In this document: piece by piece, positions 4,740 through 15,505 of the stretch
Position numbering within the stretch: the first letter of the stretch is position 1
Layout of the letters: every line of letters begins with the position of its first letter
Origin: Nitrospirota bacterium
GTDB lineage: Bacteria > Nitrospirota > Thermodesulfovibrionia > Thermodesulfovibrionales > Dissulfurispiraceae
Length of the DNA stretch: 64,000 nucleotides
Direction: 5' to 3'
Assembly (NCBI GenBank): GCA_963710375.1
Contig: CAVPZX010000002.1
Location: forward strand, 608,001-672,000
Made by a program: the position numbers and the translations under genes
The notes under the pieces: model-generated
Told to the model about the DNA's origin: nothing
Seen by the model: only the letters and a program-made list of their open reading frames with translations
Databases searched by the model: none

Positions 4740-6296
4740 TCAGGCGTGCTTCTTTAAACGTCCGTACTTTATGCCTAGCCTATCCAAGCGCCACCGCAAA
4801 GTACTCGGATTGACGCCAAGTAATTCCGCTGCACCGCCAGGGCCGTGAATCCTTCCGTTGGTGATTTTCAGGACTTTGCTCAGGTGCAGAGCTGTCGCTT
4901 CATCGAGTTTCAAGGGGACTTCCTGTTGAGCAATGGATCCCCCTCCTCTCTCGGTGGAAAGCAGCGAATCAAACATCAATTGTCCTCCCCGGTGGCGTAT
5001 CAACTCCCGCTCAACCAGGTTCTCCAACTCTCGGACATTCCCTGGCCAAGCATAGTCCATAAGCCGCTGCAAAGCGCCGGGCACAATGTTGGGAGCGATC
5101 GGAACACCCAATTCCCTGCTTTTTTGTGTAACAAAATAGCGGGTCAAGGCCGGGATATCTTCCTTCCTCTGCCGCAGCGGCGGTATGATAATAGGGAAGA
5201 CATTCAACCGGAACCAAAGGTCCTCGCGGAACCGATTTTCCGAAACCATGCTTTCCAGGTTGCGGTGGGTCGCTGCTATCACCCTGATGTCAACATTTAT
5301 AGGCTTACTGCCTCCGACCCGTTCGATTACACGGTTTTGAAGCACCCGAAGGAGACGTACCTGTGCCTGGAGCGGCAGTTCACCGATTTCGTCCAGGAAT
5401 ATGGTCCCGCCGTCAGCGCGCTCGAAGCGGCCGCGCATATCAGTTACTGCGCCGGTGAACGCTCCTTTTTCATGACCGAACAATTCGCTGTCGATGAGGC
5501 TTTCTGGAATAGCTCCGCAGTTTACCTTTATAAAGGGTTTATCCTTTCGCGACGACGAAAAATGAATCGTATTGGCGACCAGTTCCTTGCCTGTCCCTGT
5601 TTCCCCCAAGAGCAGCACCGTGTTATTCAGCTGAGCAACCTGTTGTACCATCTCCATAACATTTCTTAATCCTGAATTCCCGCCGATAACCTCGTCTCCC
5701 GCCTGTGATATGAGCTCCCTATTCAAAAAACGGTTGTCATCGAGCAGGACGTCTCTGTATTTAAGTAGCTTTTCATGAGCCAGGGCATTTGAAAGGGCGA
5801 TGGCAAATGGTTCGGCGACGATAGCGATTAGATCGAGGTGATTTTGAGTATACAGTCCTTCACCCCTGGCTTTAAGTACGAGGTTACCAATCAGCTCATC
5901 TCCTATCCAGAGCGGCGACACAAGTACTGAGTTCCCTCTCAACTCCGATTTGATGAGAGTGGCAACAGATCGTATGAATTCGTTGGAAACAGATGAGTTC
6001 ATAATAACAGGCTTGTAGAACTCCTGGTGCGGAGCCGCTGCCTTTGTCAGCGCCCAGAGTTTCTCGGGAATCGGTATAATTTCATCAGGAATTTTGAGCT
6101 CTTCTGCAGCCGCGTGGGCTACTCTCCTGATTGCGCTCAAGTCATGGTCAAGAATGTTAAAGAATAGGCTATCCAGTGGGAAATGCTGTCTCAAATACTC
6201 GAACGCACTCTTCAGCGCGGTTTCTATCTGAAGACTGCTGCATATCCGGACTGTCACTTCCCTGAAAAATTCATCTTTGTTGACCATATTCGCCAA
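4740..6296 (-). CDS. Sigma54-dependent enhancer-binding protein (GAF-AAA+-HTH, FhlA/NifA-like)
   Basis: [30 protein letters not shown]-terminal HTH, N-terminal GAF-like region. Confidence 0.93.
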
Positions 6297-6327
6297 ACCT
6301 AATTATTCGAATGCCCGAAAAATAAAA

Positions 6328-6392
6328 TTGCAACATATTGCTATTATAGTCCAGCCGACAATATATTGCAATCGTGATTGCGGTATATTGCT
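6328..6392. promoter_or_regulatory. Putative upstream activator sites: repeated GCAA-N4/6-TTGC dyads
   Basis: GCAAcataTTGC, aCAAtataTTGC, GCAAtcgtgaTTGC and GCggtataTTGC lie between the EBP gene and a sigma54 promoter. Confidence 0.5.
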
Positions 6393-6443
6393 GTTTAAAA
6401 GACGCTGCCTTTTTCAGGCATTGATATTATTATGTTTTTTTGC

Positions 6444-6459
6444 TGGCACATAAATCGCT
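6444..6459 (+). promoter_or_regulatory. Sigma54 -24/-12 promoter
   Basis: TGGCAC-ATAAA-TCGCT with exact GG-N10-GC spacing, divergent from an EBP gene. Confidence 0.75.
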
Positions 6460-6668
6460 ATATAAAGAATATGAGGACAAGGATCAAAATGGTAAGGCTA
6501 CTTTATATAACCTGTAACTTGAACTTGGAAAAGGGGGTGGTGGCAAAGCAGATAACCGTTTCATAGACAAAAATTGGGAATTTAAGTAGTTCCATATAAT
6601 CACTCATGAGAATCTACTAAATTCAAGAAAGTTAATAAAACAATATATCACTCAAGGAGGGAACTTAA

Positions 6669-7127
6669 ATGAAAACAATTTTATCGACAGTTTTATCAGT
6701 GCTGGTGTCAGTTTTTCTCGTCAGTGTAGCTATCGCTGGGGACAATTCGTTTGTAGCTGGAGGGCAAGTGATTACTGGTCAGTCACTATTTCCTCTCAGT
6801 AATCCTTCACTAAGTGTTGTGACAGAAGGGCCGGCTGTGCCTCACGTGGCTGTTAGCGGCCAGGGGGCTAATTCGTTTGTAGCTGGAGGACAGGTGATTA
6901 CTGGTCAGTCGCTATTTCCTTTCAGCAACCCTTCAGTAACTGTTGTAACAGCAGACTCGGCTGTACCTCGCATTGATGTTAGCGGCAAGGTGGATAGATC
7001 GTTTGTAGCTGGAGGGCAATTGCTTACCGGACAGTCGCTATTTCCTTTCAGCAATCCTTCAGCAAGTGTTGTGACAGCAGGGTCGGTCGTACCTAACATG
7101 GGTATTAGCGACCTGGCGGATTATTAG
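6669..7127 (+). CDS. Secreted protein with three tandem 42-aa repeats, unknown function
   Basis: AAGGAGG RBS, Sec signal ending AIA, repeats at 6744/6870/6996 with mostly synonymous divergence. Confidence 0.85.
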   Translation: MKTILSTVLSVLVSVFLVSVAIAGDNSFVAGGQVITGQSLFPLSNPSLSVVTEGPAVPHVAVSGQGANSFVAGGQVITGQSLFPFSNPSVTVVTADSAVPRIDVSGKVDRSFVAGGQLLTGQSLFPFSNPSASVVTAGSVVPNMGISDLADY

Positions 7128-7158
7128 TTTGTAGCTGGAGGTCACATCATTACTGGAC

Positions 7159-7188
7159 AGGCGCCGAGGTTTTAGGCGCCTTTTTTTT
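7159..7188 (+). terminator. Intrinsic terminator
   Basis: AGGCGCC-gaggtttta-GGCGCCT followed by a T run. Confidence 0.75.
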
Positions 7189-7237
7189 CGGCGAACGGTC
7201 ATTGATATGTTCCCTCTCTTCATGATAATCTGCCTTT

Positions 7238-9460
7238 ATGCTGAATAAGCCATTTTTATTGAGCTCGTTATCCCTAAAAACCAAAATCACCGGACTAGTG
7301 CTGATTCTGTTTTTGTGCAACATTTGGGTGTTGACGTTTTTTATTTCAGAGCGAGTGGAACACGAAATGATCACCCAAATAGAAACACAGCAGTTCTCGA
7401 CTGCATCATACATAGCTGATAGTATTGAAGTGCAGGTTAAACTGCGCATTAACGCGCTGACAACAATTGCCGACAGAATCACCCTGGACATACTCGCCAA
7501 CCCCAGTAAATTAAGAGAGTTTTTGCGTGACAAACCTTTGTTGACGACCCTGTTTCAAAAAGGGTGTGTGGTGATTTCACGGGGAGGCATAGGAATAGCC
7601 GATTACCCTGTATTGCCAGGGCGGGCAGGAGCATCTTATTCAGACCGTGAATATTTCAAGGAAGTGGTAGCTACGGGAAGACCGGTGGTGGGAGAGCCAG
7701 GGACCGGTCGATTTTCTCAAGAACCTGTTATCCGTTTTGCAGTCCCTGTTATGACCTCACCAGGCAAGCTTGTCGCTGTGTTGGCAGGTTATACATTGGC
7801 GTCAGACCCGTCTCTGCTGGGGTCGATCAAAAGTCCTGCATACGAAGACTTCCCAGACAGACTACTTTTAGTATCTCCCAAAGATCGTATTTTTATCTCC
7901 GCGAGTGATCCGCTGCGCATAATGCAGCCAACACCAAAAATTGGTGTGAACCCTTTATTCGACAGGTTTATGGCCGGGTTTGAAGGTTCCGGAGTCGCCG
8001 TTAATTCGAGGGGTATCAGAATGCTTTTATCTGCCAAACAAATACCAACGCTAGGCTGGTTTATCCGGGTGGGGCTGCCGACAGAGTTGGCATTTTCGTC
8101 GATTCGTTCAATGAAGGACCGTGCATATTTGATAGCAGTTATCCTATCACTGCTAAGTTCGTTGCTCGTATGGATTATTGTCAGGCAAGCACTGCGCCCA
8201 CTCTACAATGCAAGCAGACTTATACGGGATATTACTGAGGAACGGTTGCCGCCACAGGACATTCCCGTTACTCAGAGTGATGAGGTAGGTCAGCTGCTCA
8301 CCAGTTTCAATGTGCATCTTAATTACCGCAAGAGTGCTGAAGATACGATGAGAAAGAGTGAGGAGAAGTTCAGAACCATAGCAGACTTTACCTATGGCTG
8401 GGAGTACTGGATAGCCCCCACCGATGAAATCCTGTACTGTTCTCCTTCAAGCACGCGTATTAGCGGATATTCGCCGGAGGAATTCATAAAAACTCCGAGT
8501 CTTCTGCAAAGCATTATTCATCCTGGCGATATGGAATTTTACCGTAGACATATCGAGGTCTTTCATAACAGTTATGATGATGGAGAACAAATTCAATTTC
8601 GCATAAGAACAAAAAACGGTGATGAGCGGTGGATAGGGCACGCATGTAAAGCTGTGTTTAATGAGGAAGGAAAGTTTCTTGGCAGAAGAGTCTCAAACAG
8701 AGACATAACTGACAGTAAACTCAAGGAAATGGAGATAGCCGAGTCCAGGCAGCATATAAACACCCTCAACGATAATATATTGAAGATGCTGAGAATTATG
8801 TCACATGACATAAGGAGCCCGCTCATAGCGACATCAGCTACGTTAAAGTTACTGTTACGGGGAACTTACGGGAAACTGGACGAAAGTGTTTTTCAAACGG
8901 TCAAAGACCTCTCAATCAGGATCACACAAATTATTGGGCTTGCAGAAGACTGTCTTGCCAAAGCACAGGTAGTGAACAGCGAACTCCAAATAGAGAAGAA
9001 TGAAATAGACCTCAGACGTGAAGTAATAGAGGCTGTGCTTGCTGAACTGGCAGCGGAAATAGAGAAGAAGAATATCTTCATTGACAACAGACTCGGTGCA
9101 ATTCCCACTGGCACCATAATAGTCAATGCCAGCAAAATGTGGTTGAAGGTTGTATACAGAAACCTTTTCAGCAATGCCATCAAATATGGTGGACATGGCT
9201 GCACTATAGCCTTCGGTTATGAAGATCATGGTTCTTATTACCGGTTTAATGTATACAACACAGGAATCCCTATTCCGGAAGATAAAAGGAGCATACTATT
9301 CACAAAATTTGGCAGAGTAATGAGAGATGGGGAGACTGTTCAGGATGGTGTAGGCATGGGCCTGTTCATGACAAAGGAAATAATCAACCAGCATGGTGGT
9401 GACATATGGTATGAAGCAAAACCTGAAGGTAATGATTTCATTTTTACATTGCCCAAATAA
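7238..9460 (+). CDS. Membrane sensor histidine kinase (Cache-HAMP-PAS-HisKA-HATPase)
   Basis: Two TM segments, SDREYF Cache motif, DEVGQL HAMP, PAS, SHDIRSPL H-box, NAIKY, GVGMGL. Confidence 0.92.
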   Translation: MLNKPFLLSSLSLKTKITGLVLILFLCNIWVLTFFISERVEHEMITQIETQQFSTASYIADSIEVQVKLRINALTTIADRITLDILANPSKLREFLRDKPLLTTLFQKGCVVISRGGIGIADYPVLPGRAGASYSDREYFKEVVATGRPVVGEPGTGRFSQEPVIRFAVPVMTSPGKLVAVLAGYTLASDPSLLGSIKSPAYEDFPDRLLLVSPKDRIFISASDPLRIMQPTPKIGVNPLFDRFMAGFEGSGVAVNSRGIRMLLSAKQIPTLGWFIRVGLPTELAFSSIRSMKDRAYLIAVILSLLSSLLVWIIVRQALRPLYNASRLIRDITEERLPPQDIPVTQSDEVGQLLTSFNVHLNYRKSAEDTMRKSEEKFRTIADFTYGWEYWIAPTDEILYCSPSSTRISGYSPEEFIKTPSLLQSIIHPGDMEFYRRHIEVFHNSYDDGEQIQFRIRTKNGDERWIGHACKAVFNEEGKFLGRRVSNRDITDSKLKEMEIAESRQHINTLNDNILKMLRIMSHDIRSPLIATSATLKLLLRGTYGKLDESVFQTVKDLSIRITQIIGLAEDCLAKAQVVNSELQIEKNEIDLRREVIEAVLAELAAEIEKKNIFIDNRLGAIPTGTIIVNASKMWLKVVYRNLFSNAIKYGGHGCTIAFGYEDHGSYYRFNVYNTGIPIPEDKRSILFTKFGRVMRDGETVQDGVGMGLFMTKEIINQHGGDIWYEAKPEGNDFIFTLPK

Positions 9461-9917: not shown

Positions 9918-10421
9918 ATGAATACACCTGTTCAACCAATAAAAAGGATATGATCGAGCTTGAGACCTCAGATATTGGATAATTTAGGACTTGAAGCAGC
10001 AGTCGAGTGGCAGATTCGGGAATTCCAGAACAGAACTGACATACGTTGTGATCGGATTATCGAGCTTAAGAATGTCGTCATTGGGGAGCAACTCGCCACT
10101 GCCATATTCCGCATACTTCAAGAGGCCTTGACGAATATTATGAGACATGCAAAAGCGACGATGGTGCAGGTATTTCTAAAAGAACAAAACGGCAACATAC
10201 TACTGAAGGTCCGGGACAATGGGAAGGGGATAATGGAGAGTGAATATACCCAACCCGGTTCTTTTGGACTTGCCCGTATGCAAGAAAGGGTCAGATCTTT
10301 TGGTGGAGAGTTGACAATAAATGGAACTCCAGGAAATGGCACGACCATAACGGTAAACATCTCCCACTATATCACTCCTGAAACCACGCATATAGCTGAT
10401 TCCGGTGTATTGAGCATTTAG
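9918..10421 (+). pseudogene. Remnant of a NarX/UhpB-type (HisKA_3) histidine kinase: HATPase only, in-frame TGA at 9951
   Basis: KRI*SSLRPQILDNLGL, FRILQEALTNIMRHA, DNGKG, GSFGL..MQER; no H-box or sensor domain. Confidence 0.7.
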
Positions 10422-13482: not shown

Positions 13483-14361
13483 CTAATCTGCTGGAAGAGG
13501 GATCCTGGACTCACACGGCACCCCGCTCTGGCATAAGCCGCAGGCATAAGCTTCAAACCCGAAATGGGACGTGCAATATTCCTTCATCGCTACCTCTACG
13601 TAAGGCCGGCATTTCAACTTGTCGTGGCCCTGGTCGCTTAAGGCCCCGGCGGGGCACCGGTTGACGCACTTCTTACAAGTCCCGCGACTGAAAAAAAGGC
13701 AATATTCGTGATGGTCTTTATATGGTCGCGGAGTCGGAGGTATCTGAATGCGTGCAACAACAGAACCGCAGCGTACCGCCTTTCCCAGCGGCGTAATCAA
13801 CCCATCGCAAAGGCCAAAGGTCCCAAGCCCCGAAGCATGGGCTGCATGCCGCTCAGACCAGGTTGACGCATAAAGATAGAGTTCTGACATCTTCCACGCC
13901 CATTCGGGTGAAAGCATAGGAGCAACAGCCTCAATTCCGGCGGCCCCGAGAGTATCGACAACATGCTTTCGGAGACTTACGTTTATCTCCTCGCCGAATT
14001 TCCTGGCCCTTGCCCAGCTTTCCGAAGGGTAAGTCGTCTCCTTTTTGTGATCAGCTTTAGTCTTGGCCGTTTGAGGCAAAATCCAGCTTATAACCGTCAA
14101 ATCGCCAGCCCGCACTTCCATTTGTGGAAAAGTCAGGCTGAATATTTCCAATGGGGTCCAGTGGAATAATCCGATATGCTCCTTGAATGCTTGATAAATT
14201 GGATCACCACCGGAAGAGAATCCCACCAGGGGGTCGTCCCATGCCTTGTCGTTTGCCGGATTTTTCAGGGTGTTTTCCGGTGATTTATTGATAAAGTCTT
14301 TTACAATACTTTCAAGCCATCCAGCCGCATCTTTTATTTCGTGGTTTTCCTGCATTTTCAT
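13483..14361 (-). CDS. QueG / reductive-dehalogenase-like 4Fe-4S protein
   Basis: SERHAAHASGLG.FG, CKKCVNRCP, CGLCQSGVPC. Confidence 0.75.
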   Translation of the reverse strand: MKMQENHEIKDAAGWLESIVKDFINKSPENTLKNPANDKAWDDPLVGFSSGGDPIYQAFKEHIGLFHWTPLEIFSLTFPQMEVRAGDLTVISWILPQTAKTKADHKKETTYPSESWARARKFGEEINVSLRKHVVDTLGAAGIEAVAPMLSPEWAWKMSELYLYASTWSERHAAHASGLGTFGLCDGLITPLGKAVRCGSVVARIQIPPTPRPYKDHHEYCLFFSRGTCKKCVNRCPAGALSDQGHDKLKCRPYVEVAMKEYCTSHFGFEAYACGLCQSGVPCESRIPLPAD

Positions 14362-14380
14362 CCCAATAGCGCCATCACTC

Positions 14381-15209
14381 TCAATCCAACCATGTAATGT
14401 TGGCGTCTTTACGCAACGGCAGACGATGATATTTGTACTTCGGATACCCGATCATCATGGCCCCGAAACATGCATGTCCTTCGGGCAGCGCAAGTGTCTG
14501 CCGAAGCGGCGGCCACTGTGAGGCAGCCATCATAAAGAAACCGGCCCAGCAACTGCCCAGCCCGAAAGAAGGCGCTGCCAGATCCAGAAATGTAAGAGCA
14601 ATGGCGCTGTCGGTCCTGGCATTATTATAGTCTTTCGGCGAGTGGGCTATGACAAGACCTGGCGCTCCCCGGGTGACGCGGTCTATTCCAGCCTCCCAAG
14701 CTTTTACTAACACCGGGAAGTTATATTTCTCCGCCATTGGATGCTTCTCTGCAATCATATGGCGGATAAGGTGAACTACCAATCCGGCCATGCTTCGTAC
14801 CGCCTCACGCGAATTGACGGCAAGCCAGTTGACAAGTTGGCTGTTAGAGCCTGTTGGCGCATACCTCGCAATGTCAATTAGTTTTTCAAGCTTCTCACGC
14901 TCTATTGCTTTGTCCTGGTATGTACGGATAGACCTTCTGGAACGCAGAAAATGCTCAACGTGCTCAGCACTCAGCGCCAAGTCCTCTCTTACCGGCAGGC
15001 AGTCTTCAGTCTTCATTCCGGCAAGGGAGAAAGCCCCGTGGGGACAGACTGCAACACAATGTCCGCACCTGATGCAATATTTTTCCGCTCCCTGCACTGG
15101 CGTCGGAGGCTGAAGAAGCGTCACTCATTTCGAGGATGCGCATAGGACATTCATCCACGCAGATACCATCACGCTTGCACTTCTCTGTGTCGATCGTAAA
15201 AAAACCCAT
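14381..15209 (-). CDS. Nitroreductase with N-terminal 2x[4Fe-4S] domain; +1 frameshift near 15110
   Basis: CKRDGICVDECP in one frame; CIRCGHCVAVCP, RRSIR and APTGSNSQ in the next. Confidence 0.85.
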
Positions 15210-15505
15210 ATAAACCCTCCAAACTTTTGTTCTTCATAGCTTAACCAAGCAACCGATCGCCAAACAACCGAAGCCTGGGTGAGTCAGAAAAAAATTTTCC
15301 GAAATTGACGATATCGTCTATTTTATGTTAGTTTATAAAGTTTTGGCAATTTCCTCTATCATTTAATCTTTTTGTTCTGACACGAACAAACAGGGAGACA
15401 TTGCAGGACAGGGGAGTTGCGTGCATGAATGATGCATGGATGCTATGTACAGGAAATTCATGATATCACTTTTATAAACCTAAAAAAACAAAAGGAGTGT
15501 GTGCC

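Follow-up and report, generated by a model that had tools for sequence, protein, structure and literature searches.

Likely capture of a sigma54 promoter by the gene of a genus-restricted, predicted exported repeat protein in Nitrospirota

Introduction

Why a small repeat protein that matches no recognised family should be encoded opposite a sigma54 activator gene is the question raised by a locus in a 64,000-nt stretch of a Nitrospirota genome (Dissulfurispiraceae), hereafter called the window. The original prediction described positions 6328 to 7188 as a self-contained unit, in which an enhancer-binding protein drives the gene of a new amyloid or matrix subunit, or of a multi-core peptide precursor, and suggested that the kinase encoded next to it could sense the product. 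Fap- and curli-type amyloids are beta-solenoids with dedicated secretion factors, as described in the accessible portion of PMC12822426, and the accessible portion of PMC6173800 gives the Q/N-X10-Q/N pattern as a feature of the FapC repeat. We asked how far the locus fits such a system, where its control region came from and what the protein may do.

The activator and the predicted sigma54 promoter

The control region upstream of the repeat gene comprises the following features.

4740 to 6296, minus strand: GAF-AAA+-HTH sigma54 enhancer-binding protein (EBP), 518 aa from a TTG, with an ATG at 6287
6328-6341, 6359-6372 and 6378-6391, no strand assigned: three related dyad sites, the presumed EBP enhancer
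6444 to 6459, plus strand: sigma54 -24/-12 promoter TGGCAC-N5-TCGCT, predicted transcript start near 6470

The EBP matches Pfam Sigma54_activat with an E value of 4.5e-72, as well as GAF_3 and HTH_8, its GAFTGA motif is intact, and rpoN is present in the source genome. The dyads are kept in the metagenomic orthologs L029 and L030 and partly in loci L035 and L044 of genome G003. The motif class TGGCAC-N5-TCGCT has 15 matches in the 3.19-Mb genome, with about 0.001 expected per 400 bp on one strand, the sigma54 promoter is kept in all five orthologous loci found, and GG-N10-GC is preserved in L029, L030, both G003 copies and L035. The stretch at 6414..6426 on the minus strand, which we take to be a candidate IHF-like site with one mismatch to the consensus, is identical in L035. 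The finding of the -24/-12 element, the dyads, the GAFTGA-bearing EBP and rpoN, and their retention in orthologs, speaks for the sigma54 promoter with a divergent GAF activator that had been proposed. Stand-alone GAF-AAA+-HTH cassettes of the FhlA/NorR/NifA kind likewise pair an EBP gene facing the other way with a sigma54 promoter beside it, but the window EBP scores beneath every named NCBIfam cut-off. EBP homologs of 34-40% identity in four other genomes adjoin unrelated genes, and such EBP cassettes are therefore generic.

The repeat gene and its 3' end

6654 to 6660, plus strand: Shine-Dalgarno sequence AAGGAGG, 8 nt 5' of the ATG
6669 to 7127, plus strand: repeat-protein gene, 152 aa with three 42-aa units, from the translated ORF and a tandem-repeat scan
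6669 to 6737, plus strand: predicted Sec signal peptide, residues 1-23, cleavage between AIA and G, from hydropathy and a helix in the model
6741-6866, 6867-6992 and 6993-7118, plus strand: full repeat units
6747-6809, 6873-6935 and 6999-7061, plus strand: 21-aa cores
7119 to 7160, plus strand: dead fourth unit, made of a TAG, 11 further core codons and the join to the terminator
7159 to 7188, plus strand: intrinsic terminator with a 7-bp stem and U-tract (fold -15.4 kcal/mol, z -1.68)

All parts named in the original prediction, i.e. dyads, sigma54 box, ribosome-binding site, Sec signal, repeats and terminator, were recovered in their places, and the GGAGG of the Shine-Dalgarno sequence is invariant across the upstream alignment of the family. 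The three repeats described there are indeed three full units, but the tract runs to 3.4 copies with a period of 126 nt (80% matches, TRF score 535) and includes a dead fourth core after the TAG. The exact 126-nt spacing holds within the window clade, where units are spaced by 42 aa, but not in the paralogs (41-44 aa), and orthologs with open frames carry one, two or three cores. In line with the original description, S/G/V/P make up 50% of the mature chain, which lacks Cys and is charged at 10 of its 129 positions; the lack of Cys, however, is no family trait, given that the orthologs L029, L030 and G003 have Cys in their linkers and most paralogs terminate in Cys.

The TAG (7125-7127) stands where the other window cores have the Ser codon TCG, and the fourth core stays in frame past it and runs into the terminator. 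Contigs from runs X4 and X6, which may derive from the same sites as the source genome, span this codon with 0 differences, and both L029 and L030 also carry the TAG with in-frame core codons beyond it. Judged from these sequences, an assembly error does not explain the TAG. In most family genes, a Cys codon comes last before the stop, followed by a spacer of about 30 nt and the same terminator; in the window and in L030 the C-terminal tail and the spacer of the family are lost and core 4 abuts the terminator directly. According to the family alignment, the window terminator is a weakened form of the family terminator, and it is absent from the list of a terminator scan with a loop limit of 8.

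It is extremely improbable that the TAG is read through, by pyrrolysine incorporation or suppression, to give a protein of 3.5 units. The presence of the stop and the following in-frame core codons in both L029 and L030 would agree with read-through, but no PylS scores above the cut-off in the genome, no tRNA-Pyl is found among its 45 tRNAs, the downstream frames end differently, and changes in the 33 nt after the TAG are mostly non-synonymous (3.5 against 0.5 synonymous). On these grounds, the stretch after the TAG is regarded as a remnant. A tRNA-Sec gene lies at G000:C4:279273-279370 of the source genome.

Two remnants in the leader

The leader of about 200 nt noted earlier is present, but it is a composite of two remnants rather than one uniform region.

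6464 to 6566, plus strand: 5' stub of an azoreductase-like gene, with the match at 6464-6522 and a 25-codon vestigial ORF at 6489-6566
6571 to 6664, plus strand: decayed sigma70-type promoter and 5' UTR of the family, with -35 TTCCAT at 6590-6595 and -10 TCTACT at 6613-6618

Positions 6464-6522 are 80% identical over 59 nt to the start of an azoreductase-like gene in G003 (L035; E value 2e-8, 0 of 1000 shuffles), and nine residues are identical between the stub and the start of that gene. The G003 gene matches the NCBIfam azoreductase model with an E value of 2e-24, which is below the cut-off, and this match begins at model position 3, corresponding to codon 3 of the window stub. In L035, the equivalent EBP and sigma54 promoter precede the azoreductase-like gene, which is followed by a GNAT gene. 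The reading frame of the stub varies among the orthologs, indicating that it is a vestige. No azoreductase-like protein was found at E 1e-30 in 301 genomes of the class, a set that does not contain G003. In the donor-type locus itself (L035 / L049:7206-8200, G003:C4), some 140 nt are inserted between the promoter and the azoreductase-like gene, whose ancestral start codon reads ACG and which has a new ATG upstream. On contig C4 of G003, the cassette of EBP, dyads and promoter occurs twice, at 85% identity; the second one (L044 / L050:7400-9935) is interrupted inside the -12 box and is followed by a gene pair that is presumably HicB/HicA-like.

The second remnant is recognised by its resemblance to the promoter used elsewhere in the family. 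In 13 of 13 tabulated members outside the sigma54 group, this promoter consists of TTGC(A/G)N, exactly 17 nt with a palindromic AT-rich spacer, and TAnnnT; the pattern by which five of the 13 were found spans the -35 box and some of the spacer, not the -10 box, and the table leaves out L007, a distant match without this promoter, with L103-L105 unchecked. An nhmmer upstream profile made from seven non-sigma54 members, none of them from the source genome, finds window positions 6571-6664 at E 4e-5, at the 50-nt distance to the ATG that is usual in the family, and finds a paralog on contig C8 of the source genome at E 2e-33. The old promoter is intact in all 13 members mentioned and broken in the window and in G003, where 3 nt are deleted from the spacer in the repeat copies; positions 6586-6622 are missing altogether in run X10 and in L029/L030.

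The four sigma54 rows form one branch with a support of 100/100 in a tree of promoter-plus-signal rows. Given the azoreductase-like target in G003 and the sigma70-type promoter in 13/13 other members, the sigma54 link is better explained by capture than by an ancestral unit, and sigma54 control likely arose by one promoter capture from an azoreductase-like gene in one clade, as far as the sequences allow this to be read. Against the capture stand three observations: the donor is known from the single genome G003, both G003 repeat copies adjoin truncated EBPs with different dyads, and window positions 6523-6570 do not match the azoreductase-like gene significantly (41-83 of 300 shuffles). The old promoter decayed while the cores stayed under selection (see below), which implies expression from the captured promoter.

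The view of the locus as a self-contained ancestral unit is not supported, since in G003 the EBP and promoter drive the azoreductase-like gene and the non-sigma54 members use the sigma70-type promoter. Linkage of homologs to sigma54 or EBP genes is likewise missing for most of the family, an outcome that the original prediction had named as one that would refute it, and no EBP was found beside the 13 tabulated members in the flanks read. Promoter reuse in prokaryotes is a known kind of event, according to the accessible portion of PMC3575422. There, too, a new gene came under a relocated promoter module; in the window, however, activator, enhancer and sigma54 promoter would have moved together as a whole, and the first codons of the donor and the dead sigma70-type promoter of the recipient can be read in one 200-nt leader, features that set it apart from the cases in that portion of the source. 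The two near-identical G003 repeat copies (L013:7350-8770 and 13880-15320, G003:C3) are 97% identical, lie 6.3 kb apart, contain three cores and one core, respectively, and each adjoins a 3' remnant of an EBP gene.

A family restricted to one genus

That no family could be recognised was borne out by the library searches: for the window protein, Pfam gave nothing below E 0.015, including no DUF5666 match, NCBIfam and PDB profile searches gave no matches, and the best ESM Atlas hit (feature score 0.80, TM 0.45) was at chance level. Rfam returned three matches over 6200-7400, all far beneath the gathering score. Five relatives were found by single-sequence protein searches and 13 with a 16-row profile. 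At the genome level, matches occurred in five of nine other members of the genus and in none of 51 other genomes of the order; of 401 phylum genomes, the family profile matched two, both of them members of the genus, and within the genus it matched 8 of 10 genomes, five of them by construction. Among eight matches of a 50%-cluster search, two (P0005, P0007) belong to the family and six are unrelated long repeat proteins (P0009 was not read). None of 7991 candidates was a longer form of the window protein, which is weak evidence, and none of 43 pattern matches in viral contigs was confirmed. The family thus appears, from these searches, to be confined to one Nitrospirota genus. In a literature search whose scope left out most subscription literature and supplements, no paper was found on Nitrospirota secreted repeat proteins, on Thermodesulfovibrionia amyloid, on promoter capture with a sigma54 EBP, or tying azoreductase, sigma54, GAF and quinone. 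The protein family is new to the libraries and literature searched.

Beyond the genus, the promoter pattern yields 2-mismatch matches alone, at about the control rate; six of these seven matches were read, and none of the six showed a family gene. Behind this common promoter, the cargo of the family varies between the window-type core, other tandem motifs, and a beta-rich domain with weak DUF5666 matches. The four OB-like paralogs scanned all match DUF5666 (PF18914) with E values of 1.5e-4 to 6e-3, below the gathering score of 27, and the Atlas model of one of them, P0018, aligns with a DUF5666-type OB fold at TM 0.58. The motif can be followed from the window protein over P0007 to P0014/P0018 with 0 of 1000 shuffles at each step, and the repeat is homologous to the arm before the OB-like domain via P0007 and P0013, again with 0/1000 shuffles at each step. 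Direct similarity between the window protein and the OB members is weak (12-17 of 1000 shuffles, and 4-15 of 300 in another comparison). Compared with periplasmic OB proteins of the DUF5666/CusF kind, paralogs carry such a fold behind the family promoter and signal peptide and before the terminator, whereas the window protein has no OB domain, just the repeated N-terminal arm. In the tree (17 promoter-plus-signal rows, 179 columns, midpoint root, one row skipping an insertion), a 99/99 branch sets apart four OB-type rows, one of them broken, and the arm-bearing OB gene lies among the repeat genes. An OB-first order would fit this midpoint-rooted tree, but is not proven by it.

Selection on cores and linkers

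The earlier observation that core differences are largely synonymous, pointing to selection on the protein, is confirmed. Comparing the units with one another gives 14 synonymous and 6 non-synonymous changes in the cores (dN/dS 0.06-0.23, from three non-independent pairs), and comparison with the ortholog L029 gives 7 and 4, respectively (dN/dS 0.19, Fisher p 0.0075); the EBP gives a similar value of 0.18 against L030, and the signal peptide 0.19-0.26 (0.26 against L029). The cores are under purifying selection. Between-unit dN/dS in the linkers is 1.1-2.9. Their pN of 0.169 equals the pS of the EBP (0.163), and the linkers are therefore considered neutral rather than diversifying. Positive selection on the linkers (dN/dS 3.7) was considered and dismissed, with p 0.09 and a pN that matches the pS of the EBP.

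A gene that is near-neutral or in decay, at a site prone to rearrangement and with incidental sigma54 control, would account for the stop and 3' deletion, the lost C-terminal Cys, the weakened terminator, the truncated EBPs and one-core copy in G003, the broken cassette before the HicAB-like pair, and an orphan kinase fragment at 9954-10421. We regard it as unlikely, as comparison of the window with L029, neither of which still has a functional old promoter, shows purifying selection on the cores and signal peptide, and the sigma54 box is kept in 5/5 orthologous loci.

The neighbouring Cache kinase

7193 to 9460 (ORF 7238-9460), plus strand: dCache-HAMP-PAS histidine kinase module with its own sigma70-like site at 7202-7229

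Orthologs of the kinase in G003 (88% identity) and G002 (86%) match from window positions 7193-7198 onwards, i.e. after the terminator, and in both of these genomes they sit elsewhere, behind transposase-like and other unrelated genes. In a near relative from run X10, the adjacency of the kinase is kept up to 7698. The G002 ortholog lies 8 kb from an OB-type member, and there are up to eight such kinases per genome. From its gene context, the Cache kinase is an independent module and not part of the repeat-gene unit, and the suggestion that it senses the repeat protein found no support, its orthologs being unlinked in G002 and G003. Downstream of it, window positions 9954-10421 hold an orphan C-terminal HATPase fragment of a kinase without a sensor part.

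What the repeat protein may do

The AlphaFold2 pLDDT of the window protein was 39, but the OB member P0014 folded alone also reached just 42, and for this reason the low value is not counted as disorder. The Atlas models do separate the two kinds of protein, with a pLDDT of 0.42 for the window protein versus 0.73 for the OB member P0018.

It is quite improbable that the protein is the subunit of a new type of functional amyloid or matrix fibre, its cores stacked as a beta-solenoid like those of FapC. Pseudomonas FapC and FapB share the gross layout of the window protein, with a Sec signal, three imperfect repeats and variable linkers (accessible portion of PMC6173800); CsgA of curli is also a small, Gly/Ser-rich, Sec-exported repeat protein, and the Val/Gly/Ser-rich mature chain with its GRAVY of +0.36 would suit a fibre, as would the C-terminal Cys pair of the paralogs. 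This pair is, however, more widely spaced than the C-terminal CxxC of FapC, which is absent from the window protein. Compared with FapC and FapB, the window protein has a Pro-containing 21-aa core, no sequence match and not a single Q/N-X10-Q/N pair in the mature chain. Proline disfavours cross-beta structure, and two prolines are invariant in each core, adding up to 10 in 129 mature residues. No fapABCDEF-type operon with a FapF barrel and FapD C39 peptidase surrounds the window gene, whose neighbours are the EBP and the kinase, nor was one seen at any locus read; a PF13557 search gave no match, but neither did its controls. Curlin repeats and CsgG had no matches in the 98.8% complete source genome in searches that detected their controls, and an ortholog with one core exists. 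The amyloid or matrix role originally put forward is therefore not borne out by the Fap and curli features tested, except for the repeats, linkers and Sec signal.

Another reading is a multi-core peptide precursor, in which, once Sec has exported the chain, general periplasmic proteases would trim the linkers to free one to three signal or effector peptides of about 20 residues. The conserved cores and neutral linkers, a 51-aa ortholog in G003 with an open frame and a single core, and a match (E 1.3e-6) to P0008, a eukaryote-like protein with similar cores flanked by dibasic sites, agree with it. P0008, a repeat protein of 490 aa with dibasic sites before its cores, is presumably a eukaryotic Kex2-type precursor. 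We nevertheless consider this rather unlikely: the linkers, which evolve at the neutral rate, show no conserved cleavage site, although one might lie within the conserved core; no tailoring enzyme or transporter was seen beside the window gene, the C8 paralog (18 kb) or the G003 loci, nor any linked tailoring enzyme, peptidase or transporter in all the flanks read, several of which span 1.5 kb; the sole C39 peptidase of the genome is on another contig (C9) in another context; the proposed receptor kinase is unlinked; and P0008 most plausibly matches through convergence (core profile 4.2 bits).

A fixed short motif, free linkers and a variable copy number fit best with an exported, unfolded chain on which the motif serves for multivalent binding. 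The reading we favour, to which we give slightly less than an even chance, is accordingly a gene that captured its promoter and encodes an unfolded, multivalent envelope-binding protein with three cores on free linkers; that it is exported and disordered, and that a partner, a ligand and a role in stress exist, is what we infer. Behind this reading we rank the peptide precursor, then near-neutral decay, the amyloid and, last, read-through. The ancestral frame, common to the genus, would have comprised a sigma70-type promoter with palindromic spacer, a signal peptide, a C-terminal Cys and a terminator, with a DUF5666-like OB fold behind one motif copy in some members and a tandem motif without fold in others. 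In one clade, a rearrangement may have set the GAF-EBP, the enhancer, the sigma54 promoter and the first azoreductase-like codons before the repeat gene, after which the old promoter would have decayed or been deleted; in the branch of the window and L030, a stop and a deletion would have shortened the 3' end. Today, a small ligand might bind the GAF domain, the EBP would open the sigma54 promoter near 6470, ribosomes would initiate via the Shine-Dalgarno sequence at 6654 and the chain would be exported by Sec. In the cell envelope, the cores with their Gly-Gly and Pro could serve as multivalent short binding motifs, plausibly in a response to envelope or redox stress, a setting suggested by the donor gene alone. 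It is also conceivable, if rather unlikely, that the genus possesses a reusable export frame, made up of a repressible promoter, signal peptide, terminal Cys and terminator, with cargo exchanged between an OB fold and various tandem peptides. The window gene's core of 21 residues would then be a secreted bioactive peptide or a self-assembling motif of a new kind, its dose set by the number of copies (1-3), and one clade would have rewired it to a sigma54 activator that senses a small molecule.

The locus is not the amyloid-sensor system first proposed. Its value lies in a natural record of regulatory rewiring, with a captured promoter, a donor stub and the dead promoter of the recipient within 200 nt, throughout which the recipient protein remains under selection. 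Furthermore, it defines an unannotated, genus-restricted family of predicted exported proteins from an uncultured lineage, and it points to the N-terminal arm of an OB-fold protein as a possible source of a repeat protein. Its narrow range makes the locus of limited general interest, which would change if the core turned out to act as a bioactive peptide or to form fibres.

Further observations in the genus

The C8 paralog (G000:C8:9557-10000, L001:8558-9001) has three cores, Met/His-rich linkers, a C-terminal Cys pair and an intact family promoter, and the 18 kb read there contain neither an EBP nor a kinase; a GG-N10-GC before it is not conserved in the family and was taken as chance. A 5' UTR hairpin of five pairs in nine paralogs showed one compensatory pair and no significant z-score and is not claimed. 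The genus-specific promoter with palindromic spacer (L008:1420-1450 and 12 other loci) resembles a repressor operator and mainly marks the family. In G007, the 5' UTR of an OB-type member contains an insertion of about 170 nt with inverted ends (L020:1560-1730), which may be a small mobile element. OB-type genes at L007:1077-1689 and L021 (G006) are frameshifted, the former with three short repeats of the motif ahead of its OB-like part, and a further repeat subtype occurs at L103:307-687, L104:1340-1744 and L105:1221-1625 (G009, G002), with no Pfam match in the two scanned. Finally, a Spy/CpxP/ZraP-like (Metal_resist) gene lies beside two family members, at L010:511-1110 and at L021, the scan covering L010 only.
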